Source: an uncultured Anaerolinea sp. (GTDB taxonomy: Bacteria; Chloroflexota; Anaerolineae; Anaerolineales; Villigracilaceae). Taken from it: a DNA stretch of 64,000 nt. Below the pieces are notes generated by a model that ran no database searches, was not told where the DNA came from, and saw nothing but the letters and a program-made list of their open reading frames with translations. Every line of letters begins with the position of its first letter. The first letter of the stretch is position 1. The stretch covers positions 517 to 64,516 of the forward strand of contig CAYJPO010000012.1 of NCBI GenBank assembly GCA_964372045.1, read 5' to 3'. The position numbers and the translations under genes are program-made. Positions 17,933 through 55,955 of this stretch are shown here, in pieces.

Positions 17933-19303
17933 ATGAGGAAATTATTTCTTTTAACATTTGTGTCGATATTGTTATTAGCGTCGTGTGGTCCCGCTGTTTT
18001 GCCTGAAGATGTCTATTTGGCGACACCAGTGGTCAATCCTGAGCCAAGCCATCTTCTTGCCTTGGTGACATTGGATGATCCCGGACTTCGGTTTGATCTG
18101 GACCAACTCGTCGAGATGACCGAGGATCGGACGAGCAAGGAAATTTTAAATCTGAAAGAATGGCATACCCAGCCAGTGATCCGGTGGAATGAGGAATCCC
18201 GATATTGGGTCATGTATTACGCAGTGGATCCCGTTGTGGCATCTCGAATTTATGCCCTGGTGAGTGTTTCCCAACAGCGCGCTCTGGATGAGCTTGAAAA
18301 ATTGAACATCGATTACGAGTCTCGTCTGCCCGTTAATCTCGAAGAGGGGATTACCCCGCTGGAGCCGGGTTGTCAGCCGTTCGAATGTGCGGTCTTAGTG
18401 GGCGCCGTTGAACCAGTTCTTTTATATTTATTTCCCGACCAGCAGGAGACCATCCTTGCTACGATCCTGGATGCGCGGACCTCTCTGCTCGCATCGGGGA
18501 CCATCCTTCCCTCAGACCTTGATGCGGCAGAAGAATTCGGCAGAGTGATCGGATCTGAGTTGGTTGCCGAGCGTATGAATGATGGATCAGCAGATGCGAA
18601 GACCATTGAATCCATGCCGGAAGGGGAAGGAATCTGGAAAATTGACCCCATCCGCACCAGACCTGAACAGCCTGGGTGGAGCAAGGTCACACCCTGGGTT
18701 CTCGTTTCTTCAGATCAATTTCGCGCGCCGCCTCCGCCGGAGTTTGGTTCGCCTGAGTTTGATGCCGCGGTCAATGAAGTGCGCCAGACTGTTCTGAATA
18801 GTACGCCGGGTCAAAAGGAGATCGCGATTTTCTGGTCAGATAAACGCGGCACGTACACGCCTGCGGGGCATTGGAATGCGACCACCGCAGAGATTATCAC
18901 TGAGTATCATTTGTCAGAACGGGATGCGAGCCATGTTTATGCGGCGTTGAATATGACGATGATGGATGCAGGCATAGCTTGTTGGGATAGCAAGTTCCAT
19001 TATTACGTTGTGCGCCCCTGGCAGGCAGACCCGTCGATCACGTCCCTGATCGGATATCCGAATCATCCATCCTATCCTTCCGGTCATAGTTGTTTCTCCG
19101 GCGCGGCAGCGGAGATCCTTGCCTATTTCTTCCCTTCGGAACGCGAATCCCTTTGGGCGATGGCGGAAGAAGCTTCGATTTCAAGGTTGTACGGCGGAAT
19201 CCATTATCGCTTTGACCTCATCGCCGGGAAAGAGCTCGGGCGTCAGGTGGCTTTACTTGTCCAGTCCAGTTTAACCCCATTGGCGTGGAGTGTGTTCCCA
19301 TAA
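17933..19303 (+). CDS. Vanadium haloperoxidase/PAP2-superfamily lipoprotein
   Basis: Lipobox LLASC; motifs KFHYYVVRP, HPSYPSGHS, SRLYGGIHYRFD; SD AGGAG. Confidence 0.85.
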   Translation: MRKLFLLTFVSILLLASCGPAVLPEDVYLATPVVNPEPSHLLALVTLDDPGLRFDLDQLVEMTEDRTSKEILNLKEWHTQPVIRWNEESRYWVMYYAVDPVVASRIYALVSVSQQRALDELEKLNIDYESRLPVNLEEGITPLEPGCQPFECAVLVGAVEPVLLYLFPDQQETILATILDARTSLLASGTILPSDLDAAEEFGRVIGSELVAERMNDGSADAKTIESMPEGEGIWKIDPIRTRPEQPGWSKVTPWVLVSSDQFRAPPPPEFGSPEFDAAVNEVRQTVLNSTPGQKEIAIFWSDKRGTYTPAGHWNATTAEIITEYHLSERDASHVYAALNMTMMDAGIACWDSKFHYYVVRPWQADPSITSLIGYPNHPSYPSGHSCFSGAAAEILAYFFPSERESLWAMAEEASISRLYGGIHYRFDLIAGKELGRQVALLVQSSLTPLAWSVFP

Positions 19304-19561
19304 GCAATATCGGATAATTTGGGTGATATAATCTTTAGTTATCTTATTATTCTATCCCTGTCATTCCAGCCCCATTGCTTCCATCAACAACAAGAATCAG
19401 GCGCCTTCGTCGTAGCTGCTGGTTCAAACCCTGGCATGGGATTTTTTTTTTACCTTTTGAAAAGTCCCTCATGAAGCGAAGGTAATCGAAAATGATACCT
19501 TCCAAGTCCAATGCCTCTTGTGCAAAAGGTTTATTCTCAAAGATCAACGATTGAGGTTCAG

Positions 19562-22500
19562 ATGCGATTTGTTTCGAAGATATTTTCATTGTTATTCATC
19601 GCAGTCCTGCTGGCGGGGATGGTGGGAATTCCAAATATGATCGGGAGGGCGCTTTCCACTTCCATTGACGATATTCCCGGTGCGTCGATCGCATTGGCGG
19701 ATAACAGTTGCGCGGCTCCGATCACCCGCAACATTGTCGTCGCTTCGAGTTTTATCATCGCTGATCTGAATGTGGGCGTCAATGTGGCTCACGACCGGCG
19801 CAGTGATGTGCGTGTCACATTGGAGTCCCCCTCGGGTACTCTCGTTGTGCTTATTTCAGGCGGCGGGCTTGGTTCGCCTGCGCTTGCCAGCCCGGACACA
19901 TATGAAAGTTATGATGTCCTTCTTGATGACACGAGCATTAACTCGCTCTATGATAATGACGCCGATGCCACCATCGCGCCGTTTTATGATCGAAACGCAC
20001 GCCCGTTCGAATTGTTGAATACGTTCAAGGGGGAGGATGCTCAAGGGACCTGGATCCTGCGCATTTGCGATACCCTGGCGGGCGGTGCGGGTGGTGCGAT
20101 CGTGGAGCAATATAATCGCACTCAGTTGAATTTTACAAGCGCAGACCCGAACACGATCTCCGGCACTGTCTTTACCGATTACAACGATAATGGACTGCGC
20201 GGGACTGGCGATCTTCCGGTGCAAGGGGTGACGGCGACAGCATATGATGATACAGGCGCGGTAGTCGGGACGGATGTCACCGATGCGAATGGCGCATATT
20301 CCCTGAACATTCCTGATGGAACGCAGGTCCGCATCGAGTTCTCGACCCTCCCGGCAGACCTGCGACCCGGCGCGTTCGGCAGGGACTCCGGGACGACCGT
20401 CCAATTTGTAACCAGCCCGGCGGCAGGTGTGGATATGGGCTTGGTAAACCCGGAAGAGTATTGCCAGAACAATCCTTTCCTTGTCATGCCATGTTATATC
20501 AATGGGGATCCGCTTGGCGGCGGCTCCGCTGGTACGTTGGATGTAGTCGTATCCATTCCAAATGATGCTTATGGTCGCACTGATGCCACAATTGAAAGAA
20601 CACTGGCGACTGGCGGACAGGTTGGTACAACATGGGGACTTGCCTATCAGCGGTCAACTCATACTGTTTACGCTGGTGCGTTGGCAAAACGGCATTCGGG
20701 GTTGGGAACTCTCGGATCTGGCGGTATCTATCGGATCGTAGTGGATCCGCAGACCGGTCTTTCAACTTCAGTATCATCTTTTATCGATATCACAACGCTC
20801 GGTATTCCGGTGGGAAGTCTGCCTTCGAATGCCGCGCGCGGACTTCCCGCTATTGCCAACACACCGAATACCGACCCGGTCTGGAATGAGATCGGAAAAG
20901 CCGCGCTCGGTGACCTGGACATCGGCGCGGATGACGATACGTTGTGGCTCGTCAATCTGGCGGATCAGTCTTTATACAGGCTCAATGACATCACTGCGGG
21001 TCCTGTCACAGCCGACGGACCGTATTCGGTCGCATCGGCATTATCTGGAGCAGGGTCTGTCAGCCCGAATGCGTGTCCCGCCGCATCGGATGTGCGTCCG
21101 TGGGCGGTCGAGGTCTACAAAGGGGAAGTGTATGTGGGCGTGGTCTGTACTGCCGAGACAACGCAAAACGTTTCGGACCTGCGTGCTTACATTATTAAGA
21201 CAAGTGAAGCAACGCCTGGGACGTTCACGTTGGCGTTCGAGTTCGCTTTGAACTATCCGCGTGGAGTGGTGAGCGATACAGACGGCGGGTACCCGGCGGA
21301 ATGGCGCCCGTGGTCACCGACCATAACTTCGCTGTGCGCGAATCCGTGTGCTACGACCAATGACCTCGCATTTGACGGTCAGATCATTTATCCCCAACCG
21401 ATCCTCTCCGATATCGAATTCGATACAAGCGGCGACCTGATTCTTGGGTTGATGGATCGCACGGGTCACCAGACCGGTAATAACAACTATGCCACCACGG
21501 TCCCCTGGGGTACCGTGACACTCTACAACAAGGATACTGGATATACCCCAACGGTCGTGAATTTCGCAGTCGACCCGGCGGGTTTGTACGAAGGCGCAGT
21601 GGCGGGCGATATTTTACGGGCATGTCTATCTGGTGGTGTCTTTGTTCTCGAAAATAATGCTACCTGCGGTAGTATCACCACCGGAGGCAACAACAGCGCG
21701 CCGGGACAGGGTCCGGGTAATGGTGAATATTATTGGCAGGATATGTACCCCGTCACAACTGACAAGGATGGTGGCAGTCATGATGAAGTGACTCTTGGTG
21801 GTTTGGTGCTTTTCCCCGGAACGGATGAGATCGCAGTATCCATGTATGACCCATTTGCCGTCCGTTCAGGCGGTATATCATGGTTCAGCAACACAACAGG
21901 CGTGCGGACGCGTGCCTATGAAATATTCGGCGTGGATTCCGGAGGCGGCTCGACCACATTCGGGAAAGCCGCAGGTATCGGCGATATAGAAGGCTTTTGC
22001 TACGGCGCACCGATCGAGATCGGAAACCGCGTCTGGAGCGATACGAACAACAATGGCATCCAGGAACCGAGCGAACTTCCCATCGCCGGTGTGGATGTGG
22101 AATTGCTTGATTCGGGTGGCAACGTGATTGCCACAGTGACCACCGACGCGAATGGCAACTATTTCTTTAGCTCCGGTCCCGGTACGGATTCTGGCAATCA
22201 GGAGTATTTGATCCCCGATCTGCTGCCAAACTCAAACTATACGGTTCGAATACCGAATATCTCTGGCGGAAGTCAGCAGCCTGCGCTTGCCGGGTTGTCC
22301 TTATCGCCGAACGATACGGACGCCGACCAACGCGACTCTGATGCCACGGTCAGCGGGACGAATGCGGTGATTCCGATCACAACGGGCAACCCGGGTGAAA
22401 ATAATCATACGTATGATTTTGGTTTTGGAAATGAAACGTACAGCCTGGGCAACCGGGTGTGGTATGACACAGACAACGACGGGCTGATCGACATTGGCAC

Positions 22501-25500
22501 GGAGCAGGGCGTGACCGGAGTGCGGGTCGAGTTGTACCTGGATGCGAATACCAACGGCGTCTTCGACGGAGGCGACACGTTCCAATCGTTCGACACGACC
22601 GATGCGAACGGCTACTACCGCTTCGACAACCTGCCCGCAGGCGAATACGTGGTGGTCATCCCGACCACACAGTTCGGAACGGGCGGCGCATTGGACGGCT
22701 ATTGGAGCAGCGGCACGCAGATCTCGAACACCGGAACGGTGAGCGACAGTACCGCCAACGACGCGGACGCGGATCTGGACGACAGCGACGAGAACGGCAT
22801 CAGCACATTGACCGGCAACAGCTTGAACTATGTCTCTTCGGCAGCGGTCACGCTCGGACCGGGCAGCCTTGAACCGCTGAACGAACCGGATGCGCCGAAC
22901 GGACAGGGCGCAGTGGACGGACGCGGGAATATGACCGTGGACTTCGGGTTCTACCGTGTGGAAGTGGGCGACCTGGTGTTCGTGGACTCGAACGACGACG
23001 GCGATTACGACGCGGGCACCGACACCCCCTTGGCAGGCGCGTTGGTGCAGTTGTACGCTGGCGATGGAACGACCGAGATCATCACCGGCGCGGACGGCAT
23101 CCCTGGCACAGCCGATGACAGTTTTGGACCGGATGGCATCTCGGGCAATGCGGACGATAACACGGGCGGTGTCTTGACCCCAGCCAATGGCTTATATGAA
23201 TTCAGCGGGCTGCCCGCAGGCGACTATGTGGTGAAGGTCACCCCGCCGACGGGCTACGCCAGCACGCGCGACACGTCGGATGCGACCGACACGGGCAACC
23301 CGAACACGAACACGGACAACAACGACAACGGCGTTGGCACGGGACCGGGACAGGTCACGAGCAACGTGGTGACGCTGACCCCGGGCAGTACCGGAGCGCA
23401 GAACAACAACACAGTAAGCCAACCGACCGGCACGACCACCAATCCCACCGTGGACTTCGGGTTCACACCGCTCAACTATAGCCTGGGCAACCGGGTGTGG
23501 TACGACACGGACAACGACGGGCTGATCGACATCGGCACGGAGCAGGGCGTGACCGGAGTGCGGGTCGAGTTGTATCTGGATGCGAATACCAACGGCGTCT
23601 TCGACGGAGGCGACACGTTCCAATCGTTCGACACGACCGATGCGAACGGCTACTACCGCTTCGACAACCTGCCCGCAGGCGAATACGTGGTGGTCATCCC
23701 GACCACACAGTTCGGAACGGGCGGCGCATTGGACGGCTATTGGAGCAGCGGCACGCAGATCTCGAACACCGGAACGGTGAGCGACAGTACCGCCAACGAC
23801 GCGGACGCGGATCTGGACGACAGCGACGAGAACGGCATCAGCACATTGACCGGCAACAGCTTGAACTATGTCTCTTCGGCAGCGGTCACGCTCGGACCGG
23901 GCAGCCTTGAACCGCTGAACGAACCGGATGCGCCGAACGGACAGGGCGCAGTGGACGGACGCGGGAATATGACCGTGGACTTCGGGTTCTACCGTGTGGA
24001 AGTGGGCGACCTGGTGTTCGTGGACTCGAACGACGACGGCGATTACGACGCGGGCACCGACACCCCCTTGGCAGGCGCGTTGGTGCAGTTGTACGCTGGC
24101 GATGGAACGACCGAGATCATCACCGGCGCGGACGGCATCCCTGGCACAGCCGATGACAGTTTTGGACCGGATGGCATCTCGGGCAATGCGGACGATAACA
24201 CGGGCGGTGTCTTGACCCCAGCCAATGGCTTATATGAATTCAGCGGGCTGCCCGCAGGCGACTATGTGGTGAAGGTCACCCCGCCGACGGGCTACGCCAG
24301 CACGCGCGACACGTCGGATGCGACCGACACGGGCAACCCGAACACGAACACGGACAACAACGACAACGGCGTTGGCACGGGACCGGGACAGGTCACGAGC
24401 AACGTGGTGACGCTGACCCCGGGCAGTACCGGAGCGCAGAACAACAACACAGTAAGCCAACCGACCGGCACGACCACCAATCCCACCGTGGACTTCGGGT
24501 TTAGGACCAGCACCGGCTTGAGCAAGTCGATCATTGATACCTCTGAGACGTTCACGAGTGGTTATAACCTGGCGATCGGAGAGATCGTCACCTATGAAGT
24601 TGCTTTTGATCTGCCGGTGGGTGTCCCACTGAATAATGTTACGGTGACCGACCGCATGGACAGAGGTCTGGCATACGTCGATTGTTTGTTGGTGCAAGTT
24701 GCTGGAGTGAATCAGACCGGGACCGTTTGTCCGACGGCTGTGGTTTCATCGATCACCAACCCCGGCGATTCAGTATCCAATCCCGCCAACCCCGGCAGAC
24801 AGGTTCTATTCAACCTCGGGAATATTCCGGCTCAGGGCGGGGTGTCGGCGGTCATCATCCGCTATCGCGCCATCGTGCTGGATGTCATCGAGAATCAAGC
24901 TGGCGGAACGTTGAACAATGATGTCGTTTTTGCGTGGGACGCCGGTTCGTTCTCCACAAGTGCGCCGGATGTAACCATCGTTGAAGCGGAAATGAACATC
25001 GCAAAAACCGTAACACCTTCGACCAATGTTGCGATCGGTACGCCGGTTCAGTTCACGCTGACGATCGGGCACAGTGCCCAAAGCGGTACAGACGCATTTG
25101 ATGTTGTGGTCACGGATATCGTGCCGCCCAGCTTGCAATATATTCCCTGTACTATTCAATACAGTGGATTGGCTCCCACGACTCCGCCGGTGGGTTCTGC
25201 TTTTTGCCCTGGAGCGGCAACAGACCTGACCTTCGAGTGGGATGTGTTCCCGCGCGGTCAGACTGCCACCATTACCTTCAATGCCTATTTGTTGGTTTCT
25301 CCGGCGACGAATGTCGGCTCGGTGGCGTGGACTTCTCTGCCGATCAACCTGGATCAGAATGGGCTTCCGCAGCTGCTCTCGCTCCACAACGCCGAATCGA
25401 CCGAGCGTTGGTATGACCCAGGTGACCCGGTCAATGTGTACGGCATATCTGCCAGCGCGGCGATCAATGCGGTTCCAGGGGTCTCTGATGAGGAAGTTGA

Positions 25501-26053
25501 ATTGCCCGACGAACTTCCAGACACGGGCTTTGTTCCCGGGTCATCGATTTCCCTTCCCAGGAATCCCGAGGAAGCGGCATACAAACAGACCGGGGTATGG
25601 TTGGAGATCCCCAAACTTGGCGTGAACACTCCCATCGTCGGTGTGCCTTTATTAGATGATGACTGGGATGTTTCCTGGTTGGGGAATAGCACTGGCTGGC
25701 TGGAAGGTACTGCCTTCCCGTCCTGGCAGGGGAACAGTGTTGTGACCGGGCATGTGACCCTGCCCGCTGGGAATGATGGTCCGTTTGCGGCATTGGGCAC
25801 CCTTGGCTGGGGAGACCGGGTCATCGTCCATGCTTATGGAAGTGAGTACATTTATGAAGTGCGCCAGACCCGCACGGTCAGTCCGTTCAATACGACCGTC
25901 TTGCAGCATGAAGATGAAGCCTGGCTGACCTTACTCACGTGCAAGACTTACATCAAGTCAGCGGACACCTATCTCAGCCGCATCGCAGTCCGGGCTGTGC
26001 TGATCGATGTTCGGGAGGATGAAGCGCCGACTCCATCCGGCAGCATCCGTTAG
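19562..26053 (+). CDS. Giant secreted adhesin-like protein 1: signal peptide, proprotein-convertase P domain, SdrD-B domains, propeller-like region, DUF11/isopeptide domains, LPDTG, C-terminal sortase domain
   Basis: Hydrophobic N-terminus; DLNVGVNVAH..SD..VTLESP / GTWILRICD (P domain); about 6 GNRVW/GDLVF...DFGF SdrD-B repeats; LPDTG at 25514-25528; sortase His 25751, TLLTC Cys 25940, Arg 25979. Confidence 0.88.
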   Translation: MRFVSKIFSLLFIAVLLAGMVGIPNMIGRALSTSIDDIPGASIALADNSCAAPITRNIVVASSFIIADLNVGVNVAHDRRSDVRVTLESPSGTLVVLISGGGLGSPALASPDTYESYDVLLDDTSINSLYDNDADATIAPFYDRNARPFELLNTFKGEDAQGTWILRICDTLAGGAGGAIVEQYNRTQLNFTSADPNTISGTVFTDYNDNGLRGTGDLPVQGVTATAYDDTGAVVGTDVTDANGAYSLNIPDGTQVRIEFSTLPADLRPGAFGRDSGTTVQFVTSPAAGVDMGLVNPEEYCQNNPFLVMPCYINGDPLGGGSAGTLDVVVSIPNDAYGRTDATIERTLATGGQVGTTWGLAYQRSTHTVYAGALAKRHSGLGTLGSGGIYRIVVDPQTGLSTSVSSFIDITTLGIPVGSLPSNAARGLPAIANTPNTDPVWNEIGKAALGDLDIGADDDTLWLVNLADQSLYRLNDITAGPVTADGPYSVASALSGAGSVSPNACPAASDVRPWAVEVYKGEVYVGVVCTAETTQNVSDLRAYIIKTSEATPGTFTLAFEFALNYPRGVVSDTDGGYPAEWRPWSPTITSLCANPCATTNDLAFDGQIIYPQPILSDIEFDTSGDLILGLMDRTGHQTGNNNYATTVPWGTVTLYNKDTGYTPTVVNFAVDPAGLYEGAVAGDILRACLSGGVFVLENNATCGSITTGGNNSAPGQGPGNGEYYWQDMYPVTTDKDGGSHDEVTLGGLVLFPGTDEIAVSMYDPFAVRSGGISWFSNTTGVRTRAYEIFGVDSGGGSTTFGKAAGIGDIEGFCYGAPIEIGNRVWSDTNNNGIQEPSELPIAGVDVELLDSGGNVIATVTTDANGNYFFSSGPGTDSGNQEYLIPDLLPNSNYTVRIPNISGGSQQPALAGLSLSPNDTDADQRDSDATVSGTNAVIPITTGNPGENNHTYDFGFGNETYSLGNRVWYDTDNDGLIDIGTEQGVTGVRVELYLDANTNGVFDGGDTFQSFDTTDANGYYRFDNLPAGEYVVVIPTTQFGTGGALDGYWSSGTQISNTGTVSDSTANDADADLDDSDENGISTLTGNSLNYVSSAAVTLGPGSLEPLNEPDAPNGQGAVDGRGNMTVDFGFYRVEVGDLVFVDSNDDGDYDAGTDTPLAGALVQLYAGDGTTEIITGADGIPGTADDSFGPDGISGNADDNTGGVLTPANGLYEFSGLPAGDYVVKVTPPTGYASTRDTSDATDTGNPNTNTDNNDNGVGTGPGQVTSNVVTLTPGSTGAQNNNTVSQPTGTTTNPTVDFGFTPLNYSLGNRVWYDTDNDGLIDIGTEQGVTGVRVELYLDANTNGVFDGGDTFQSFDTTDANGYYRFDNLPAGEYVVVIPTTQFGTGGALDGYWSSGTQISNTGTVSDSTANDADADLDDSDENGISTLTGNSLNYVSSAAVTLGPGSLEPLNEPDAPNGQGAVDGRGNMTVDFGFYRVEVGDLVFVDSNDDGDYDAGTDTPLAGALVQLYAGDGTTEIITGADGIPGTADDSFGPDGISGNADDNTGGVLTPANGLYEFSGLPAGDYVVKVTPPTGYASTRDTSDATDTGNPNTNTDNNDNGVGTGPGQVTSNVVTLTPGSTGAQNNNTVSQPTGTTTNPTVDFGFRTSTGLSKSIIDTSETFTSGYNLAIGEIVTYEVAFDLPVGVPLNNVTVTDRMDRGLAYVDCLLVQVAGVNQTGTVCPTAVVSSITNPGDSVSNPANPGRQVLFNLGNIPAQGGVSAVIIRYRAIVLDVIENQAGGTLNNDVVFAWDAGSFSTSAPDVTIVEAEMNIAKTVTPSTNVAIGTPVQFTLTIGHSAQSGTDAFDVVVTDIVPPSLQYIPCTIQYSGLAPTTPPVGSAFCPGAATDLTFEWDVFPRGQTATITFNAYLLVSPATNVGSVAWTSLPINLDQNGLPQLLSLHNAESTERWYDPGDPVNVYGISASAAINAVPGVSDEEVELPDELPDTGFVPGSSISLPRNPEEAAYKQTGVWLEIPKLGVNTPIVGVPLLDDDWDVSWLGNSTGWLEGTAFPSWQGNSVVTGHVTLPAGNDGPFAALGTLGWGDRVIVHAYGSEYIYEVRQTRTVSPFNTTVLQHEDEAWLTLLTCKTYIKSADTYLSRIAVRAVLIDVREDEAPTPSGSIR
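22442..24501 (+). repeat. Near-perfect intragenic tandem duplication, period 1038 bp (346 aa, two SdrD-B domains)
   Basis: 22442-23463 versus 23480-24501; four synonymous differences seen in the first ~100 bp; alternate-frame ORFs in the track recur at +1038. Confidence 0.95.
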
Positions 26054-26087: not shown

Positions 26088-26117
26088 AGGAGCGACCGAT
26101 CTCGGTCGCTCCTTTTG
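26088..26117 (+). terminator. Intrinsic terminator after adhesin 1
   Basis: 11-bp stem aggagcgaccg/cggtcgctcct followed by tttt. Confidence 0.9.
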
Positions 26118-26194
26118 ATTTCAAACAGGAAAGAAGCAGAATTTTTCGAGGCTGTGTAGACAATATTGCCTTTCATAACTGTGATTTTCATCTG

Positions 26195-26223
26195 TTGACC
26201 CTAGTACTAATTAGCTATAAAAT
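26195..26223 (+). promoter_or_regulatory. Sigma70 promoter of adhesin 2
   Basis: TTGACC(26195)-N17-TAAAAT(26218), about 20 nt upstream of the riboswitch aptamer. Confidence 0.7.
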
Positions 26224-26242
26224 ATATTAATAATCATCTTAA

Positions 26243-26336
26243 CTTACGGATGCACAGACCCAATGCGGGAATTGGTCGCATATCCAACTCAATTTGGATA
26301 CGCATTGGCGAGCAAAACAGCGAAACCGGCCGTAAG
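26243..26336 (+). ncRNA. c-di-GMP-II riboswitch aptamer
   Basis: P1 cttacgg/ccgtaag; kink-turn tgc-aca-GA / GA-gca; P3 ccaatgcg/cgcattgg; pseudoknot GG-TCGC (26274-26279) pairing GCGA-AA-CC (26320-26327), the same geometry as GG-GCAC/GUGC-AA-CC of known class II aptamers. Confidence 0.82.
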
Positions 26337-26360
26337 CCGTTATTGCTGTTTTATTTTCTT
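26314..26360 (+). terminator. Riboswitch expression-platform terminator overlapping the aptamer 3' half
   Basis: aaaacagcga..cggc-cgtaa-gccg..ttgctgtttt followed by attttctt; mutually exclusive with P1 and the pseudoknot. Confidence 0.75.
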
Positions 26361-26455
26361 AGTGACCCGGTGTGGAAAATTATATATTAGTGGTACCAGT
26401 GTAAAAAATTTATTCCAAAAAATTTATAGCTGAGATTCGGGCAGCCCATTTTTTT

Positions 26456-29400
26456 ATGAGGACTATCATGACTTCATTCTATTCATCACGTTCGCTCTCT
26501 CCGTATCACTTTTTTGTTACACTCCTATTCATTCTGACACAGGTGTTCGTATTTTCTCCGGCACAGGCATCGCCTGCGCCGGAACCGGTTGAACGACGAC
26601 CGTTATTTATGCCTGTGGCAGGAGTTGCCTTGGGAGTCCCAAGTGAAGTGTTCATCGGTCAGGAATTCACCTTTACAGCTTCGTTTTCCAACAATGCCAA
26701 TACTTCAGACGCTGATCCTGCCGACACCGGGTATGGTCCTTTCATTGACCTTGTCTTCCCGGTTACCGGCGTGGACGGCGACGATGGTATCGATTTTGTG
26801 AGTGCCAGTTATGGCGGTGCAGCGCTGCTTGGCTCACAGGTCTATGAAAACATTTTTCCGGATGACGATGGCATCGGACTCGGTACCACTGGATGTGTGC
26901 AACATCCCATTGCCGTTCTGGGCGCCAATGTGCCGCCTGTTCCGAGTGACGTGACACAGCCGCGCTACATGACGGTCTGTGGAACTGCGGGCGATAAACT
27001 GGTGACACTGGTCTTGCCCTTTGGTTCTTTCGTGCCGGGGCAACCCACCGCCGAAGTGACAGTTACCGCACAATTGAGTGACCTGGCGGATGTCAGCACT
27101 CCCTTGAACATCCAAGCGGCAGGTGGTTTCCAATATGGCGCGACCCCCACGAACGACTTTTGTTGTTCCCCGTTCGATGCGACCCTTTATAACGTTCCCA
27201 ACCCGGGCGATACTACCACCTGGCCCGGGAGTTCCGTTGAACCGATCATCATGACCCTTGCAAAGACATATGTCGGTCCAGAGAACGAAACCGCCACCGG
27301 ACCTAACTTCCCGCGCCAGTATCGGATCAGCGTGGATATTGCCGATGGGCAGACGGTAAGCAATTTGAACTTTGTGGATATCCTGCCGGATAATATTCAA
27401 TTCATCGGCATCGATTCGGTCACCGGCGGCAGTTATGCGGTCAACGGCAGTTTGCCATCCACATCCACCCCTGGCGGGACGCTTGACATCACCCTCGACA
27501 ATCCGGTCACGGGTACTTCGGGCAGTTCGGATGCGATTTTGTTATTTAGCTTCTACGTTGACCGGCTGGATGCAAGCAGTAACCCGGTTATAGACGCAAG
27601 CACGGGTGAACAAATCAACCCCACCAATAACAGCTCTTCTGCCAGCGGACCATGGGATCCGATCGATCCGCGTGATGATACCCTCCCTTTGCCGACCGCA
27701 TCAGGGGCATGTGCGCCCCCCTGTGTCGGCATTCAGGATGAATCCATTGCCGTGCAGAAAAGTGTGAGAAATATCACCGATGGCAGCAACAGCCCCGGTG
27801 ATGTTCTGGAATATACGCTTGAATTTCAGGTCTCGGATTTCTTTGGTTTTGAGGATGTCGTTCTGACCGATGTGATCTCGGATGGACAACGCTTCGACAC
27901 AGGATTCGCGCCCACGTTGGATTTTTCCGCCAACCCGGCTTCCAATGATTTCAGCGGCAACTTTGTACTGAATACCAATTACACAGTGGATAGTACAGAT
28001 ATAGGTAACACCGGTCCTGGTTGGCCTGCATCTGATGGAACAGACGGAACACAAACGATTACTTTCAATGTTTCAGGTTTGTTGGGAGAACAACTCCTGG
28101 GCGGGTGTGTGAATCCCACGGCAGCGAACAACCCGCCGGTCTGCACTGGAAGCGGTCCGTATGGAAATGACTCCACAGTCGGCACGATCCGCTTCCAAAC
28201 AATTATCCAGGATGAGTTCAGCGATGAATACCCATCCGGTGATGAATCTGTGGATCATGGCGATACCCTCGATAATAACGTGGATATTACCGGCACCGTG
28301 CTCGACCTGACGGATTACAGTCCGGTAACCGGTTTTGATACAGCCGCCGGTACGCCTGTGGACGACAGCGGCGCGGGTGTGACGATTGCCTTTGGCGGTT
28401 TGGTTAAATCCATTTACGCGGTTAATGGCAGCACCACCATTCCCGAGTATTTGACTCCAGGCGACGAGGTCACGTATTCCCTGACCTATACCCAGCCTGC
28501 CAGCGATTTTGAAGAGACTGTATTTACTGATTACCTGCCCCTGCCGGTCTATGATGCGAGTGAGATTACTGTGTTGAGTAATGCCGCCTGTGGTGGGACA
28601 TATCCGGCGGGCACGATCTGCCTTGGAAGTGGCGATACATTCCATACGACCTTCGCATCTGTCTGGGGGACGACCTACATCCCAACCCTGAGCGTTTCCC
28701 CCGCCGGAAACTCGTTCACGGTGACGTACCCAGAGTTTGACGACCTCAGCAATCGGAACACAATCATTGAATTAATGGTTACGGTCACGGTTCAGAATGA
28801 CCCCTTTGCTGACGGACTTTTCCTGACCAATCAGGCTGCCGCGCTAGAGGGCACCACCAATGCCGGCGATCAGAATGTTGATTCCATTATTCAGATCAGA
28901 TTAGGCGAGCCTGACCTGAGCACGTCGAAGACGGCGGTTTCCACCAGCCATACACCGGTGGCAGATGTTACCTTTGCGTCTGATGACCCGCTGGTCCCGG
29001 CTTCAAATTTGATCGTGGGACAATTTGCGTCGCCTGCCAACGCAGGTGTTCCATTCACGACCCCGCTTGGGTCGGACGATCTGAGCACCGATCCGGATGA
29101 TTTGACTCTTGCATTCAATCGTTTCAACAGCACCATGTTCGGCGTGGATGATCAAGATCTGGTCAAATATGCCATCCTGATCGAGAACCGCGGTCATAGC
29201 GCAAATGGCGGTTATGACATTGTCGTCTCGGATATTATGCCGCCGCAAATGGACTTTCCCGGCGGCGCTTCAGCCAACCTAAACCTCCAGCTTTATCGCG
29301 GCGATGGAGAACCATTGACATTTGCGGTCATCTATTTTGGCGGTGACGGCGAATACGGCGGCGGTGATGATATTGTCACGCCCGGCGATTCGACAAATGC

Positions 29401-32400
29401 TCACCTCATCTTCACATCCGGATACGCCATTCGTGTCAATGACCCGACTTCCGGCATTGATGCGGGCAAGGGTGCCTGTCAGGTGCATGAAGCCACCAGC
29501 GGCAGGAACGTCATCGTCATCACATATGACCTGCAAGTGGATGGCGACTACGACCCCAATACTATCATTGAGAATACGACCACGTTCCACAACTACGGTG
29601 GGACGGAGGGCGGACCCAATCACCTGCCCAAGCCTGAAGATGAGGATGCCAATATCGTTGTTGGAACACCATCCTTTGCACAAGGTGAAGGCAAGACCCT
29701 GCTCAGCACCGAATTGGACAGCGTGCTCACACCGGCAACTGTGACCGGCAATACCCGCACTCAGGCGGTGATCGGAGAACTCGCCACCTATGAGTTGGAG
29801 GTCAACCTGCATGAAGGCAGACTGCCCGCCGCGCAACTAGTGGACACGCTCGACGCCGGTCTTTCGTTTGTTCGGATCGATAGTGTTACTGTTTCTCCAG
29901 GTGTTACTGTACAAACGACTCCCGGCACTGGCACAATCCCCACAAATGTAACGATTGCCAGCGCCAATGGCGGGGTTGCCAATCAGTTGACCTACAATTT
30001 CGGGGATATCGTCAATGCCAATACCGATGACGCCGTGAACGAGACGATCACCATCGTCTATACAGCTGTGGTGAATAATGTTGGCACAAATCAGAGCGGT
30101 ACAGGTCTCAATAACAGTGCCCAATTGACTTGGGGTGGCGGTGGTTCCCTGCCTGCCATTACGTCCGAAGAAGTGATCGTCCTCGAACCTGTGATGACCA
30201 TTAACAAAGATACGGTTCCCTCCACCATTACCAGCCTGGATGCGGGCGATACCCTCGACTACAGAATTATCATCACAAACAGTGGCGCCACTGAAGCCTA
30301 CGATGTGACCTTCAGCGATCCGCTGCCGCAGTATTACGAATCTATTTCGATCACAGGTGTCAGCGGTACAGGCGGGGCGGCGCTCTCCGATTTTGAGATC
30401 GTCGGTTCGGGCACTTTCCCTGCTGATCCGTATATTCTCCAAACCACTGTCGCAGCCAACCTGGACTTGAATCCCGGCGAGACCATCATCGTCGATCTGC
30501 AAGGTACTCTTTCTAATTCCATTCCGCCAAGTTCAACATTGAGTAACACCGGCACCGTCATGTGGACGAGTTTGAATGGTAATGTTGTTGATCGTTCCAC
30601 GCACAACCCGGGAGAATCCGACGAACGCACGGGAACGAATCCGGTTGTGCAGCCCAATGATTACACAGCCAGCAGTTCTGTGGTGATCGATATCAGCAAT
30701 CCGCTGCTTCTGACCAAGTCCCTGATCGCTACATCTGAAAGCCACACGACCTTGAACGGCGGTACTGGTCTTGAAGATGTCGCCATCGGTGAGATCGTGC
30801 GCTATCGTCTGGCGGTGCGAATTCCAGAAGGCACCAGCCGCAACCTGCAATTCCAGGATCGTCTGCCCGCGGGCATGACCTTCCTCGATGATGGTACAGC
30901 ACGCCTATCCTTCGTCTCCGATGCCGCTGTTTTGGGAAGCGTCAGTTCAGCCGCATCTGGCGGCATTCCTGCCATTGTCTGCGCGAACGATGACGGTAGC
31001 TCTGCGGCAGCTGCCAGCATGACTTGTACCTTTGCAGACGATAATATATCCAATTCACTGGCGGGTTTTGACGATACATTCACATCCGGCAGAAACGTTT
31101 ACTTTAAGTTCGGTGATGTGACCAACAGCGAAAATGACCTGAACGACGAGTTCATCGTCGTGGAATTCAATGCCATCGTCGATAATGCAATTATCACCGG
31201 ACTGCCTTCCAGCCAGAACGATAATGGCGACACCCTGATCAATGATTTCGTTGCACACGAAAACGGTTCACCCTCACCTGTAGGTGTGAATTCGGACGAT
31301 ATCAACGTTACGGTACGCGAGCCGGTCATCAATAATGTGGATAAAGTGCTTACCGCGCCGATTCCCACCAGCTTTGACGCGGGCGATACCGTTTCCTTCA
31401 CCGTTGCCTTTTCAAATACCGGCTCGGTCGACGCCTTTGATGTGGTCTTGCGCGATACGCTTCATCCCGCCCTCGACCTGACCTCGGTTTCCGCTCCAAC
31501 GTATACATCCTGCTCCATCGTACCCACTGGGACGAATAACTCTGATACGGGTGCGGGCAATCTCGTTCAATACACCTTTGACCGGGTAGCTTCGAACTGC
31601 CAGATCAGCCTGACATACACTGCCAATATTTTGTATAGTGTTACCCCCGCTCAGGTTCTTACGAACACCGGCGTGGTGACCTATACCAGCCTTCCCGGAA
31701 CAAATGGCACCACCAGCAATCCCACTGGTTCCAGCGTCCCTGGCGCCAGCGGCACAGAGACTGGTGAACGCAATGGGACATACCCAACAATCATCGAGCC
31801 GAATGATTACATGCATTCGGACAATGCCCAGCTCACAATTGACAATGTTGTACCGACAAAATCCATTATCGCCACATCTGAAACTCATACCAGCGATGCA
31901 ACGGCAGATACAATTGTGGATCCGCGCCCCGTTGCTATTGGTGAGATCATGCGCTACCGCCTGGTGGTTCAAGTTCCCGAAGGCTCCAATACAGACTTGA
32001 CATTGACCGATCAGCTATCCACTGGCGTCACGTCTATTTTCGATACAACTACCGAGATCAGCACGTTGAACTTTGGGGCAGGCAATTTTGGCAGCCTCGA
32101 TTTCGGGGCTGCTTTGGAAGCCGCCAATGGGGTGACGGTTGACCTGTACAATGCGGGCGGGGCACCGCAATTTACCGCGCCGTTCAATTTAGTGACTCTC
32201 AACGGTTCGAACTTGCTGACCTTCAACCTTGGCGATATCGTCAACAACGACAACGATGCCAATGCGGAATACATCATCATCGATTTCAATGTCCTTGTGG
32301 ATAATGAGGGCGGTATTGATAATGGTGATGTCTTTGCGAATAATTTTGGTGTTTCAGTTAATTCGCGCCCCGTGGTTACCTCCAATACGGTTTATGCGCG

Positions 32401-35400
32401 GGTGAATGAACCGGCTATCACCAATCTCGACAAAACGGTCACGTCTGCGGGTCCGTATGATGCGGGCGATACGGTCAGCTATTCTGTGACATATACCAAT
32501 TCAGGCACATCCGACGCCTTTGAAGTGCAAGTCCTCGACGCCTTGAATTCGACCTACTTTACGATCAATACCGGCTCTGTCTCAGTGACTTCGGTTTGCG
32601 CAACCCTCCCGGCGACTGTGGTGACCTCGAGTAACACCGTCGATGTGACGGTCAGCCGTGTGCCGGTCGGTTGTGTGGTCACGATCACCTACTCGGCTGT
32701 CCTGACCACCTCGGTCAACCCAAGCACAAATTACCTCAACACTGCCAATATCACATACACCTCTCTGCCCGGCACGGGTACGACCGGCAACCCGACCGGT
32801 TCGAACACTCCCGGCGGGAGCGGCGCGGCGAATGGCGAACGTAATGGCGTAGGTGGTGTGAACGACCAAAACGATACCGATACCGCCCAGATCACCATCG
32901 CGGCGATCCAGCCGGAGAAGCGTATCATCGCAACCTCTGAGACGCACACCATCGACCCGGCGAATCCCACCAACATCCTCGTGGATGATATTTTAACAAA
33001 TCCGCGCCCGGTTGTGGTCGGCGAAGTGATGCGTTATCAGTTGGCGATGACTGTGCCCGAAGGCACCAGCACTGACTTTGTAATCTCCGACCAGCTTTCC
33101 ACTGGCGTCACACCGATCTTTGACGCGACCACTGAAATCCGCACGTTGAATTTCGGCGTACCATTCACGAGCGTTGATTTTGGCGCGCCATTGGCGGCAG
33201 CCAGCACCGGCACAGTTGACCTGTATAACGCTGGTGGGACTCCACAGTTCACCGCGCCGTTCAACCTGGTGACGCTCAACGGTTCGAACCTGCTGACCTT
33301 CAACCTCGGCGACATCGTCAACAACGACCTCAACGACGGCAACGCGGAATACATCATCGTCGAGTTCAATGTGCTGGTGGATAATGAAGCCGGTAACCAA
33401 AACCTGACCGTCTTCGACAACGACTTCACGGTTTCGATCAACGGTGCGACCAGCGGGACTTCCAACACGGTCTACCATCGCGTTGTCGAGCCGGTCCTTG
33501 CCACCACCAAGAACGATAACGACCCCGACGGCTGGGCGTACGGTCAGACCGTTACCTATACGGTTCAAGTTGCCCATGTCAGCGGCGATCCCACCCCAGC
33601 GGACAACAGCGCGGCAGATGCCTTCGATCTCGTCGTCACAGACACCATCCCTGCCGGGTTGACGTACGTGACCAATACAATGACCGCCCCTGCCGGTTGG
33701 ACGTTGGATCAATCCGCTGCTCCCATCCTGATCTGGCGCTGTACTTCACCCGTCTGTGCCATGACCTTGGCGGGCGGAGCTGTCAACCTGACTTATCAAG
33801 TGGTTGTCAATGATGTGACAGTCACCCCGCATATTGACGGAAACACAACCGTGACCAACACCGCCGTCACTACCTGGACTTCCCAGCCCGGCGCGGGCAC
33901 GACCGGCAATTCCACCGGCTCGAATACCCCTGGCGTCAGCGGCGCGACGGACGGTGAGCGCAATGGTTCAGGTGGTGTGAACGACTACACAGTGACCGTC
34001 AACCACACTGATGGTCTGGCTCCTTACTATGCGCTCGGCAATCGCGTCTGGTTCGATACGGACAACAGCGCCGACATCAATGGCGCGGAAGTAGGCGTTG
34101 GCGGCGTCCAAGTCCGCTTATATGAATCCGACGGCGTTACTCCCGTCTATGAACCGAATAGCGTCATTCCGCGTGTGACCACCACCAACGCCACCGGGTA
34201 TTACCTGTTCGATTATCTCGAACCGCGTGACTACATCGTGGTCATTCCAGCGGCAAACTTTGACAACACAGGTGTTGGCGATACCACCACCGCTTTAGTG
34301 GGTTATTGGTCTTCTCAAACATCCAGAGACGCCGCCGGAGCCATCATCGAAACTGCCGCGCCTGGTCCCAATAACGATACCGACTCGGACGATAACGGCA
34401 CTCGACAGGCAAGCGGCGATGTCGTCTCGCTTCCGATCACCATCGGTCCGGGCGAACCGACCGGGGAAGTTGCCCCAGGCGGACAGGGTGCCCAGCCCGA
34501 TGACCGCGCCAACATGACCGTGGACTTCGGCTTCTACAAGGTCGCCATTGGCAATCTTGTCTATGAAGACATCAATGCCAACGGAACCTATGACAACGGA
34601 ATCGACACCCCGCTCAATAACGTGCCTGTCGAGTTATTGTCCTCAACCGGTGTGCTCATCGAGTCGACGAGTACGAACGGAAGCGGGCTTTACTCCTTCG
34701 TGAACCACCCTGACGGCGATTACATCGTGCGCGTCACCACCCCGACGGGTATGGTCAGCACCATTGATACGTTTGCCGCCACCGATAACGCCAACCCGGA
34801 TAACGAACCCACCGGTGAAGTGGATGACAACGACAACGGCATCGGCATTGGCGCGGATACGCTCATCAATGTGTCCTCCGGCGTCCTGACTATGGACTCG
34901 GGTGAAAGCGGCAGTACTCCCGCCGTCATCACGGTGGATGACAACACCGGTACGACCACCGACACCGGGCTGGACTTCGGCTTTGTCTACCCGTACGCGC
35001 TCGGCAATCGCGTCTGGTTCGATACGGACAACAGCGCCGATATCAACGGCGTGGAAGTCGGCGTGGATGGTGTGCTCGTCACGCTCTATCACGCTGATGC
35101 ACTTGGCGTTGCCACCACACCGGTCACGGTCGGTGGCTTGCCTGTCAGCGATACGACTACGAACGGCGGCTATTACCTCTTTGACTATCTCAACCCAGGC
35201 AACTATGTTGTAGTTCTTCCGGCATCCAACTTTGCTGTTGGCGCTGTTCTCGAAGGCTACTGGTCATCGCAGACGTTTCGCAATGACACCACCGGAGCCA
35301 TCACCGAAACCCCCGCGCCCAATCCCGACCTCGGAGTCGATGGCGCAGTCGGCGGCGGCGATGACGATGAAGACTCGGATGACAACGGCACGCTCCAAAC

Positions 35401-38400
35401 CGGCGGCACGTTCAACGGAGCCGTGATCGCTCAGTCGGCCACACTCGGACCGAGCGGCAATACCGAGCCGACGAATGACAACGACCTTGAGACTGGCGTC
35501 AACCACGGCGATCAGCCCGATGGACGCTCGAACCTGAGCGTGGACTTCGGCTTCTACAAGGTCAGCGTGGGTAACCTTGTCTGGGCAGATGCCGACAAAG
35601 ATGGCGTCTATGATGCTGGCGAGCCGCTCTTCCAAAATGCGACAGTCTATCTCTATGCCGCGAATCCTACTACGAATGCAGTCATCGGCGCGGCGCTTGC
35701 TTCCACGACAACAGACATCAACGGCGTCTATAACTTCGATACCCTGCCCGAAGGCAATTACATTGTCGCTGTGGATGCGCCGGTTGGTACATTCAGCACC
35801 ATCGACTCGGCGGATACGATCACCCCGAACACCAATACCGATGATGCGGATAACGGCATCGGCGAGACTGGCGGAACGGTGTACTCGAACGCGGTCTTCC
35901 TCGAAGCAGGCAATGCCGGGATCAACAACGTTGTGGATGACGGCGCAGGTCCGCTGACGATCGACTTCGGCGCGACCTACAATCCCACCATGGACTTTGG
36001 CTTCACGCCGGTCTACTCGCTTGGCAACCGCGTCTGGTTCGATACCAACAACAACCGCATCATCGATAACTTCGAAGTTGGGGTGGATGATGTAGCCGTT
36101 CTACTTTACGATATTTCCGGCAATCAGATCCTTATTGGCGCGGACGGTATCCTTGGAAGTGCCGACGATGGCACGACCAACCCGGTGCTCACCGACAACG
36201 GCGGCTATTACCTCTTCAACGGACTTGAAGCGGGCGATTATGTGGTTGTCATTGCTGCGTCCAATTTTGTCAGCGGCGGTGAACTCGAAGGCTATTGGTC
36301 TTCTGAAACCCGCCGCGATACAACTACGGGTCTGGTCACCGAACCTCTGGCGCACTCGCCTGAAACGAGTCAGGACTCGGACGATAACGGCACGCTCCAG
36401 ACCAGCGGCGCATTCAACAATGCAGTTATTGCGCAGACAGTCACGCTGGGTCCAACCTTCAATGAACCTCAAAACGAAGGCAGCGTCGCTGGGGCACTCG
36501 ATGCAACCCTGCCCGGCAATCAGCAAGGTCAACCCGACGCGCAGGCGAACATGACCGTGGACTTCGGTTTCTACACCATCACCCTCGGTGACCTGGTCTG
36601 GATCGACACTGATAACAGCGGCACCGTCACAGGTGCAGAGGCTGGTATCGACGGCGTGACCGTTCATCTTTACCCGGTGAATGGTATTGGTGCGCCAGTC
36701 GGCTCACCTGTCATTGCCACCACTGCTGGCGGCGGACTCTATTCCTTCACCGGTCTGCCGCAGGGCAACTACATTGTCCACCTGCCCGATACTAACTTCA
36801 TGGGGGCGGCTGCCCTCCGCGATTACTATTCCAGCACCGGCGCGGGCAATCTCTACGAAGTACCGGCTGCTCCCAACCCCGATATTGTCACCGTCGATTC
36901 GGATGACAATGGCACGGAAGTCGGCACTCTCGGCTTCACTGGCGGTTATATCCAAAGCGGCATCTTTGCGCTCACGCCGACTTTTGAAGGTTCGTATGAC
37001 AATACCATCGGAACAACCAACGAACCGCGCGTAGACTTTGGTGTATATCGCAGTCCGCAGGTTAATCTCTCCATTGTCAAGACCGAAACGCCTGACAAGG
37101 GCTATTACCTGCAAGGTGAAACGACCACCTACTCCATCCTGGTCACCAACCACGGTCCGGCAGACGTGATCAACGCGGTCATTGACGACGCCATACCGCT
37201 CGATGGTTCCTCCAACCCGATGTTCACCGAATGGGACTGGGTATGCACTACCACTGGCGGCGCGACCTGCAATCCGCAGCTCAATTTGACCGGCGACTTT
37301 ATCGACACGGTCGATATGCCCTACGGCTCGACCATCACCTACACGGTCTCAGTGACCGTAGCCGGCACTGCCACGGGCACATTGGTCAACACTGCCACTG
37401 TCACAGCTCCTGCGAGCGTCACGGAAGGCAACCTGACGGATAATAGTTTCAGCGATACGAACAACCCCGCATCCATCACCATCACGAAGACAGATGGCTT
37501 GACCGTTGTTGCGCCGAACTCACCGCTGACATATACCATCACGGTCACAAACAATGGCGCGGTTGACCTTACCAGCCTCACAGTCACAGATACCCTGCCG
37601 GGTGAGGTGATCTTCCAAAGCGCGAATCCTGTACCCGCGACTGCCCCGGCTCCCAACACGCCGGGTGGAACGCTCACCTGGACGGGACTCAGCCTGCTCT
37701 CTGGCGCATCGACGGACATCTCGGTCACGGTTCTGGTCATCCCGACGGCGATCGGACCGAACCTCCTCAACTCTGTCACCGTCACCGATGCGAACACGAA
37801 TGCCACCGCCTCAGCGACAGATTCAGATGTCGTCGCCTGGGATAAGACCAAGGTTTTGGCTGGGACGAGCGAAGCCTTCACACCTGAGACGATCACACCG
37901 CCTTCTACACTTCGTCCGGTCGCCATTGGTGAGGTCCTTACTTACCAGATCAGCGTGGAAGTGCCTGCGAACTCGACCCTAACCAATCTCCGGGCGTTGG
38001 ATATCATGGATGCAGGCTTGGCATTCGTGCGCTGTGTCAGCATTGCGCCAGATGCGAATCTCACAACTGACCTGACGGGTGGGTTTGCGGCGGCTTGTAA
38101 TGCTCCATTTAGCCTGCTTGTCGGTCCAATCCCGAATCCGGTTATCTCGCGTGAACCGGTGGGTGATCCCAGCACGTACAATGACGGACGCCGGGTTGAT
38201 TTCAACCTCGGTAATGTCACCAACACGGATCTGGCGAACGTCCAAACCCTCACCATCACCTACGAAGCCATCGTGCTTGATATTCCGTCCAATGTGCAGG
38301 GCACCCCGGGTCTTGATAACGGGGTGACATGGTCGTGGCTGGGAGGCTCGCTTTCTGCTTCTGCCAACGCGGTCGAGATCAAAGAGCCTAAATTGAGCAT

Positions 38401-39691: not shown

Positions 39692-40279
39692 ATGACACCC
39701 CGTTCCCTCAAAGTTTTCCTCTGCCACGCTTCGGTCGATAAACCTGAAGTTGGGAAGTTATACGCCTTTCTCCGCAGTCAAGGCGCAGACCCCTGGCTTG
39801 ATTCAGAGAATCTTCTCCCCGGTCAGGATTGGAATTTCGAGATCCGCAAATCGCTGGATGATTCGGATGTCATCCTGATCTGCCTCTCGAAGAAATCGGT
39901 CAGCAAAGAGGGGTATGTTCAGAAAGAACTCCGCATCGCTCTGGACCTTGCGCTTGAGATGCCGGAGGAACGCATTTTCCTCATCCCAGCCAGGCTCGAA
40001 GATTGCGACCTGCCCTATAGTCTGAAGCCCTATCACTGGGTCGACCTGTACACCCCAAGCGGCATGGAGAAATTGGTCAAAAGCCTCAACCTGCGCGCCA
40101 GGCAGGTCGGTGCGAGATCGCTGTCAGAGGACGGCGCACCTGCCCCTGAGATCAAGAAAACCACCCCGAAGAAAAAACCTCGCGCGAAACCTTCCTCCGG
40201 ACCCACCATCAACATTCACGGAAATGTCACCGGCTCGACGATCGTCGTCGGCGACGATAATCAAGTGGATACCGATTGA
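39692..40279 (+). CDS. TIR_2 domain protein with RHIM-like C-terminal tail
   Basis: KVFLCHAS, DPWLD, LPGQDW, VQKEL (catalytic Glu), IPARLEDC; K/P-rich linker; tail INIHGNVTGSTIVVGDDNQV; leaderless TATAAT-N6-ATG. Confidence 0.88.
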   Translation: MTPRSLKVFLCHASVDKPEVGKLYAFLRSQGADPWLDSENLLPGQDWNFEIRKSLDDSDVILICLSKKSVSKEGYVQKELRIALDLALEMPEERIFLIPARLEDCDLPYSLKPYHWVDLYTPSGMEKLVKSLNLRARQVGARSLSEDGAPAPEIKKTTPKKKPRAKPSSGPTINIHGNVTGSTIVVGDDNQVDTD

Positions 40280-41078: not shown

Positions 41079-41207
41079 GACGCCATTATACCTGCTGGTA
41101 TGGCTTTTGATGGGTTCTAAAGGGACGGAATTCCCCCAACGTAATCGGTTATACTCATGCGAGTTTCGTAATGATTCTCTAACCAATCATCTCAAGAGGC
41201 AAAAGGT

Positions 41208-44352: not shown

Positions 44353-44393
44353 ACAAAAAGTCCGCAACCTGATACGTTGCGGACTTTTTGTTT
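44351..44393. terminator. Bidirectional terminator
   Basis: 18-bp stem aaacaaaaagtccgcaac/gttgcggactttttgttt. Confidence 0.9.
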
Positions 44394-44457
44394 AACCTTC
44401 TCGCATCATCTGGACCTGAAACTGACTCGCTCCATTTGAATTTTTCGCCCCGTTGCC

Positions 44458-46882: not shown

Positions 46883-46924
46883 ACTGATTTTCATGGCGTA
46901 GAAGGACTGATCAATATATATGCT

Positions 46925-46961
46925 TGAAAGACATCACTTCCAACAGAAGTGATGTCTTTCA
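46925..46961. terminator. Perfect 16-bp stem-loop after the sugar transferase
   Basis: tgaaagacatcacttc-caaca-gaagtgatgtctttca; U-tract weak. Confidence 0.55.
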
Positions 46962-47025
46962 CAATACGGATTGGATCGAAAGGATTAAGTTGCAGATGAA
47001 GATGAACTTGTGGTTTAATTAATAA

Positions 47026-53652: not shown

Positions 53653-53691
53653 ATTTTGTGGTTGATAAGTACATTGCAAAGGATGGCTTGT

Positions 53692-55950: not shown

Positions 55951-55955
55951 TAATA

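Follow-up and report, generated by a model that had tools for sequence, protein, structure and literature searches.

The leader upstream of a gene for a 4316-aa secreted repeat adhesin (26456-39406, + strand) raised the question of whether this gene is governed by a riboswitch and, if so, by which ligand and in which direction. Coordinates are positions in the window, i.e., the whole stretch of 64,000 nt that was analysed, and the riboswitch lies on its + strand. Judging from its sequence, we consider the leader likely to be a c-di-GMP-II riboswitch (RF01786) that turns transcription ON; it belongs to a lineage-specific subfamily, and c-di-GMP is its presumed ligand.

The aptamer was delineated with the RF01786 alignment, and P1 also from the sequence itself. 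P1 consisted of CUUACGG (26243-26249) and CCGUAAG (26330-26336). The J1/2 adenine (26250), the equivalent of A13 of the crystallised aptamer 3Q3Z, was followed by P2 (UGC/GCA, 26251-26253 with 26312-26314), a kink-turn with an ACA bulge (26254-26256) and tandem sheared G.A pairs (GA/GA, 26257-26258 with 26310-26311), and a C.C mismatch adjoining P3 (5' C at 26259). P3 itself comprised 8 bp (CCAAUGCG/CGCAUUGG, 26260-26267 with 26301-26308), and its 3' side continued from CGCAUUGG into a C, the sheared GA and the GCA of P2 (26301-26314). Between the pseudoknot strand in the P3 loop and the 3' strand of P3, the window carried an insertion of 21 nt in place of approximately 3 RF01786 model positions. 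The insertion folded as an extra hairpin, P3a (UAUCCAA, loop CUCAAU, UUGGAUA; 26281-26287 with 26294-26300), with a free energy of -6.0 kcal/mol, compared with -0.3 kcal/mol for shuffles. P3, the inserted hairpin and a terminator hairpin were all present in the minimum-free-energy fold of 26230-26362. A first-pass annotation made from the letters alone had described P1, the kink-turn, P3 and the extra hairpin; all of them were found, at coordinates that were exact or at most one base off. The window contained a single copy of the composite motif, and 100 dinucleotide-preserving shuffles yielded no copy.

The 5' strand of the pseudoknot (U-GGUCGC, 26273-26279) was located within the P3 loop. 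Its GGUCGC (26274-26279) could pair with GCGA (26320-26323) and CC (26326-26327) around two adenines (26324-26325), which correspond to A69/A70 of 3Q3Z. The 3' strand therefore read GCGA-AA-CC, followed by GG (26320-26329), with A26323 replacing C68. Where the RF01786 consensus has UGGGCAC ... GUGCAACCG, the window had UGGUCGC ... GCGAAACCG. Since the change from G to U was matched by one from C to A, and that from A to G by one from U to C, the compensatory change in the pseudoknot was complete. It amounted to two double substitutions relative to GGGCAC/GUGC-AA-CC, as had been proposed.

In a search of 381 nt, RF01786 matched 26239-26340 (+) with 35.3 bits and an E-value of 4.6e-6, covering model positions 1-84 of 84. 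The covariance-model check that the annotation had called for thus gave a significant full-length match, though one 18 bits under the curated Rfam gathering cutoff of 53.5 bits. When the whole 64-kb window was scanned with Rfam gathering thresholds, no match was reported. With an E-value threshold, the speed filters of Infernal lost the RF01786 site in the whole-window scan, which listed spurious matches to Thr_leader, bxd and mir only. A strong bidirectional terminator hairpin between convergent genes (44336-44444) was the source of the spurious sub-threshold Thr_leader matches on both strands. The 21-nt insertion and the four pseudoknot substitutions plausibly explain part of the score deficit. 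Two other members of clan CL00127, which we take to be c-di-GMP-II-GAG and c-di-GMP-II-GCG, also matched the site; they scored lower than RF01786 and were hidden by the clan filter. RF01786 was the best fit, and no other clan model fitted better.

Relatives were sought with two pattern scans. A degenerate pattern, applied to one genome per species, gave 9 matches, 6 of which were Anaerolineales genome bins with the whole architecture (Anaerolinea sp., Ca. Villigracilis propinquus, Ca. V. proximus, Brevefilum fermentans (L007) and two other Anaerolineales). The second scan covered metagenome contigs, left the pseudoknot 3' strand free and returned 28 loci: 12 real members and 16 chance matches in G+C-rich coding sequence. 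These 16 loci were rejected together with the genome matches L002, L005 and L009, all being G+C-rich coding sequence lacking a pseudoknot or terminator. After removal of duplicates, the family contained 16 distinct members (the window and 15 relatives). Viral contigs were also scanned with a canonical class II pattern, as an outgroup for pseudoknot covariation, and gave 2 matches, of which L038 looked like chance G+C-rich coding sequence.

RF01786 matched seven relatives over its full length, with 53.9 (L011), 46.5 (L035), 43.1 (L036), 42.3 (L022), 42.2 (L019), 41.8 (L010) and 33.7 bits (L015). Among these seven, only L011 exceeded the cutoff of 53.5 bits. Five chance pattern matches, used as negative controls, had no RF01786 match. 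With scores of 33.7-53.9 bits in the relatives, the subfamily lies on both sides of the curated cutoff, and the window copy belongs to its more divergent members.

Public runs holding the window sequence were sediment, activated-sludge and wastewater metagenomes. Short contigs from sludge metagenomes (runs X7, X9 and X10) were approximately 87-91% identical to window positions 26168-26356 and then diverged in the hairpin and P3; some of them covered the promoter plus the aptamer's 5' half, others its 3' half plus the terminator. This indicates, as far as such fragments can be read, more paralogous or orthologous copies in related populations. In many relatives (L001, L007, L008, L019, L027, L035 and L036), a conserved motif, AGTACyTTTrGGTGAT, was located 5-8 nt before P1. 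Its AGGTGAT resembles a ribosome-binding site, in which case the GG-AUG-Cnn-UGA of the aptamer (P2 and the kink-turn bulge) would be a two-codon mini-ORF. The window lacked this leader motif and had ACA in the kink-turn bulge. A small SRP RNA gene (RF00169, 59-62 bits, above the cutoff) was found approximately 200 nt from the riboswitch in two relatives (L010, 1343-1441; L011, 2906-3004).

The proposed helices were examined across the 16 sequences. The MAFFT alignment (A1) had the inserted hairpin out of register in some rows. A covariance model (R1) was built, and the sequences were realigned to it (A3). In A3, which is fitted to the tested structure by this realignment and favours it, 90.8% of cells were paired, versus 36-44% with the partners slid; its covariation score exceeded those of all 500 shuffles (500/500), and double changes occurred in 10 pairs. 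In P3, four pairs had changed on both sides and 93.8% of cells were paired (A1 for the pairs, and also A3), and P3a had five pairs with double changes (A3). RNAalifold independently predicted P3 and P3a from A1. Every member had an insert at the position of P3a, with differing sequence. Folded alone, the inserts formed a clear stem in 15 of the 16 members, L011 being the exception, and were usually more stable than shuffles. A semi-conserved UAAAG 3' of the hairpin may extend P3 or P3a.

P1 was 7 bp in the window, the longest of the set, and had 4-5 conserved pairs in most relatives. Its inner ACGG/CCGU was kept in 15-16 of the 16 members, its fifth pair varied (U-A, A-U or U-G), and L015 had lost most of it. 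The columns of J1/2, P2, the kink-turn and the GA pairs (26250-26259) were invariant in A1 and partly fixed by the search patterns, which accounts for P2 and the GA pairs being without covariation. The pseudoknot UCGC and GCGA were identical in all 16 members though left free by the search patterns. Elsewhere in the 3' strand, L035 alone differed (GCGAACCC vs GCGAAACC). Because the pseudoknot and P2 are invariant, the subfamily provides no internal covariation for or against either of them. As an alternative, RNAalifold paired GCGAAACCG with the 5' CGGAUGC; covariation does not separate the two pairings, and the pseudoknot is preferred by homology to RF01786.

Nucleotides of the ligand pocket were mapped onto the window through the RF01786 alignment and the crystallised sequence of 3Q3Z, which agreed with the listed contact nucleotides at 13 of 13 letters. 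In 3Q3Z, c-di-GMP is contacted by A13, A14, U37, G39, U60, A61, C68, A69, A70, C71, C72, G73 and A74 (review, PMC7288161). The window kept A13 (26250), U37 (26273), G39 (26275), A61 (26316), A69/A70 (26324-26325), C71/C72 (26326-26327) and G73 (26328). Where the consensus is weakly conserved (lower case), A14-U60 had become U-A and A74 had become G. At a conserved position, C68 was replaced by A26323 and its partner G40 by U26276, and this exchange was fixed in all 16 members. As C68-G40 is A-U throughout the lineage, affinity or specificity could differ from those of the characterised aptamer.

A sigma-70-type promoter-like site (+ strand) preceded the aptamer, with TTGACC (26195-26200) and TAAAAT (26218-26223) separated by a 17-nt spacer and 10 of 12 matches. 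It corresponds to the promoter that had been noted in the first-pass annotation. Near-identical -35, spacer and -10 sequences occupied the equivalent position in relatives L003, L017 and L006. A TAGTAC element was noted in the promoter spacer of the window (26203-26208), L003 and L006. The terminator of the upstream gene (26088-26113) was located before the promoter-like site, and transcription is predicted to start near 26230.

Downstream of the aptamer, the minimum-free-energy fold contained an intrinsic terminator on the + strand (-17.1 kcal/mol). Its hairpin spanned 26314-26352, with a G+C-containing core at 26318-26348, and was followed by the U tract UUUUAUUUU (26349-26357). The 5' arm overlapped the 3' strand of the pseudoknot and the start of the 3' strand of P1, so that the U-tailed terminator does reuse the 3' strand of the aptamer, as had been suggested. 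The arrangement was shared by the family: a hairpin and U tract were found 3' of the aptamer in 16 of 16 members, with differing 3' arm sequences. The 8-nt 3' strand of the pseudoknot contributed 1-8 nucleotides to pairing with the terminator (4 or more in 15 of the 16 members), and in all 16 the 5' arm also included nucleotides of the P1 3' strand. As the terminator 5' arm is made of the pseudoknot and P1 3' strands, the terminator and the ligand-bound fold are mutually exclusive. A ligand-stabilised pseudoknot and P1 would exclude the terminator in all 16 members, and the ON logic thus appears conserved. The conformer with the terminator had a free energy of -36.4 kcal/mol, versus -20.1 kcal/mol for the aptamer secondary structure with the pseudoknot and ligand uncounted, a gap of approximately 16 kcal/mol. 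The terminator conformer being the more stable, readthrough must be secured during transcription, and control is presumably kinetic.

We propose the following sequence of events. Transcription would begin near 26230 from the promoter at 26195-26223, and the nascent leader would fold P2 and the kink-turn first, then P3 and P3a. If c-di-GMP is present, GGUCGC would pair with GCGA-AA-CC as the pseudoknot and P1 would close, sequestering 26320-26336 in the aptamer. The 5' arm of the terminator would then be occupied, and RNA polymerase would read into the adhesin gene. Without ligand, the more stable terminator hairpin (26314-26352) and its U tract would form, and transcription would stop near 26355. 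High c-di-GMP would accordingly be expected to induce the giant surface adhesin.

The open reading frame of the regulated gene begins with an in-frame ATG at 26456. As read from the sequence, the likely true start is the ATG at 26468, with a likely ribosome-binding site, GAGGA, at 26458-26462 (+ strand); the first ATG has no such site. The relatives shared this arrangement (AGAGGA/AAGGA-N5-8-ATG). The 4316-aa protein had an N-terminal hydrophobic signal, six stretches matched by SdrD_B and six by DUF11, SpaA-like folds and an isopeptide-forming pilin domain (TIGR04226, 175 bits). Near its C-terminus, LPKTG at residue 4145 (38888-38902) led straight into a sortase domain, whose Cys motif was TLITC (39311-39325). 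The same C-terminal sortase module was detected in L034 and L013 with Pfam, these being the two with the C-terminus in their sequence, and in L027 with tblastn. Of the proteins downstream of the relatives' riboswitches, 5 of the 6 scanned were secreted giant repeat proteins (DUF7933, DUF11, SdrD_B, SpaA); a 329-aa fragment downstream in L010 had no matching Pfam family.

A search of the 64-kb window with R1 found no second riboswitch. With this single copy, the upstream adhesin gene (19511-26053; 5' region 19303-19510) is without such a leader, and the two adhesin genes in tandem seem to be under different control. The C-terminus of the upstream adhesin (within 25514-26053) contained LPDTG (25514-25528) and the Cys motif TLLTC (25928-25942). 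In both adhesins of the window, LPxTG led directly into a sortase catalytic domain, as it did in L013, L034, L027 and L035. No membrane-spanning segment was found after LPxTG in either of the two (maximum Kyte-Doolittle value approximately 1.0). The replacement of the sorting signal by the sortase itself suggests self-processing or self-polymerising adhesins. Of solved structures, class C (pilus) sortases were the closest to the adhesin sortase domains. The one NCBIfam sortase model to pass its cutoff was the generic sortase_fam; no sortase class model did so.

Directly 3' of the adhesin gene were genes for a small TIR-domain protein (39692-40279, +) and a convergent protein with NYN and OST-HTH/LOTUS domains (40329-41186, -). 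Further downstream, sugar transferase, Wzy and flippase genes (46193-52222) preceded a gene for a Wzz-GGDEF fusion protein (52462-53652), followed by genes for a BcsB-like protein, a family-2 glycosyltransferase and a polysaccharide deacetylase (52462-58176). This region resembles an exopolysaccharide locus that includes a putative diguanylate cyclase of its own, at a distance of 13 kb from the riboswitch. With Wzz-GGDEF in the window, parts of the c-di-GMP machinery are encoded nearby.

Several other explanations of the leader were weighed. It might be an ordinary terminator with hairpins that mimic a class II aptamer by chance, as the score below the Rfam cutoff and the absence of the site from the whole-window scan would allow. 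The full-length alignment with its E-value of 4.6e-6, the composite motif missing from all 100 shuffles, and 15 relatives with covariation and the same gene context stand against such a coincidence, which is practically refuted. A second explanation is that the switch works in the OFF direction or on translation, given the approximately 100 nt between terminator and start codon. We regard this as very improbable, since the ribosome-binding site (26458-26462) is far from the aptamer and the terminator 5' arm is the 3' portion of the aptamer in 16 of 16 members, such that the ligand-bound fold excludes the terminator. Somewhat less improbable, yet still unlikely, is a decayed or ligand-independent leader, in which an aptamer-like relic accompanies a constitutive or protein-controlled attenuator. 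The window copy has one of the lowest RF01786 scores (35.3 bits) and deviates from the consensus at two places, the kink-turn bulge and the linker leading to the pseudoknot, and one relative (L015) is without most of P1. A relic is hard to reconcile with the 7-bp P1, the longest of the set, the intact pseudoknot and kink-turn and the good P3a stem of the window, and the long invariant stretches among divergent metagenomic relatives argue for purifying selection.

The alternative to which we assign the most weight, while still considering it unlikely, is a class II fold with changed ligand or affinity. Owing to the added helix and the exchange of the pocket-adjacent C68-G40 for A-U, the RNA would recognise c-di-GMP over a very different range of concentrations, or else respond to another cyclic dinucleotide or a related nucleotide. 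In c-di-GMP-I riboswitches, single changes in the pocket switch the ligand to c-AMP-GMP. C68 is on the ligand-proximal list of 3Q3Z, its replacement and that of G40 by A26323 and U26276 are fixed in 16 of 16 members, and Rfam holds separate variant families in the same clan, CL00127. Against a changed ligand, the other strongly conserved pocket nucleotides are all retained, including the equivalents of A69 and A70; the base-pair swap preserves the helix; surface adhesins are a classic c-di-GMP output; and RF01786 outscores the two other clan members. An extended form of this idea seems to us a bold conjecture with little chance of being right: the Anaerolineales RNAs would be a distinct structural subclass of c-di-GMP-II, retuned by the change from C68-G40 to A-U to another cyclic dinucleotide or a very different c-di-GMP range and dedicated to 'self-sorting' giant adhesins (LPxTG fused to its own sortase) in activated-sludge Chloroflexota. 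In such a subclass, the added helix may turn the pseudoknot-forming hairpin loop into an internal loop. We therefore favour a c-di-GMP-responsive transcriptional ON switch, the reading already given in the first-pass annotation; it agrees with the terminator-aptamer overlap shared by all 16 members, the surface-protein target and the significant RF01786 match.

Characterised examples of RF01786 include the aptamer of Clostridium acetobutylicum (PDB 3Q3Z) and, in C. difficile, Cdi-2-4 (pilA1), Cdi-2-3 (CD2831) and Cdi-2-1 (CD3246). Class II ON switches of C. difficile control pilA1 and the sortase substrates CD2831 and CD3246 (PMC6366702; also PMC4591827 and PMC6200980), so the annotation was correct in treating control of pili and adhesins in this species as established. 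The window RNA has the same order of P1, P2 with kink-turn, P3 and a loop-to-3'-tail pseudoknot with two bulged adenines, and keeps the equivalents of A13, U37, G39, A61, A69, A70, C71, C72 and G73. Like the C. difficile class II riboswitches, it has a competing intrinsic terminator, predicted ON control and a surface adhesin target with sortase motifs. It differs from RF01786 in that two of the four pairs at the centre of the pseudoknot are exchanged (G40-C68 to U-A and A42-U66 to G-C), a variable hairpin of approximately 20-30 nt takes the place of a linker of approximately 3 nt after the pseudoknot strand, and P1 is short. The genome-derived members come from six Anaerolineales (Chloroflexota) bins, not from Clostridia.

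Other known systems resemble the locus in part. The models c-di-GMP-II-GAG and c-di-GMP-II-GCG are listed among the Rfam riboswitch models (PMC9943018). Like the window RNA, these variants derive from the class II fold and have changes at conserved nucleotides; those nucleotides of the window that could be mapped were parent-like except for C68-G40. Tandem class II aptamers are located upstream of COG4932 surface-anchor proteins in Paraclostridium (PMC9481103). There, too, a class II aptamer precedes a large surface-anchor protein, whereas the aptamer studied here is single, belongs to another phylum and carries an extra hairpin. In Bacillus thuringiensis, Bc2, a c-di-GMP-I (GEMM-I) ON riboswitch, is located upstream of the collagen adhesion protein gene cap (PMC4933901). 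Induction of readthrough into an adhesin gene by c-di-GMP is common to both, as a prediction in the present case, but the aptamer folds are unrelated, Bc2 being of class I.

By its sequence features, then, the leader represents a structural variant, specific to its lineage, of an established riboswitch class with a known job, and not a new kind of system; the regulatory logic and the type of target are known from Clostridia. What is new is the lineage, the inserted helix, the re-paired pseudoknot including the pocket-adjacent pair, and the fact that most members score under the Rfam cutoff. Within the full-text collection searched, no paper mentioned both c-di-GMP-II and Chloroflexi. With this finding, the known range of class II c-di-GMP riboswitches reaches into Anaerolineales, with members in Ca. 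Villigracilis and Brevefilum bins and in metagenomes from sludge and sediment. As most such RNAs score below the cutoff, routine annotation misses them, and the alignment and model R1 could recover missed members. The natural pair swaps in the pseudoknot and the inserted helix are also ready-made structure-function variants of a solved aptamer. The riboswitch also makes a connection between c-di-GMP and giant-adhesin expression open to testing. Filaments of Anaerolineales help to structure activated-sludge flocs, and such a link between c-di-GMP and adhesins could therefore be of practical interest.
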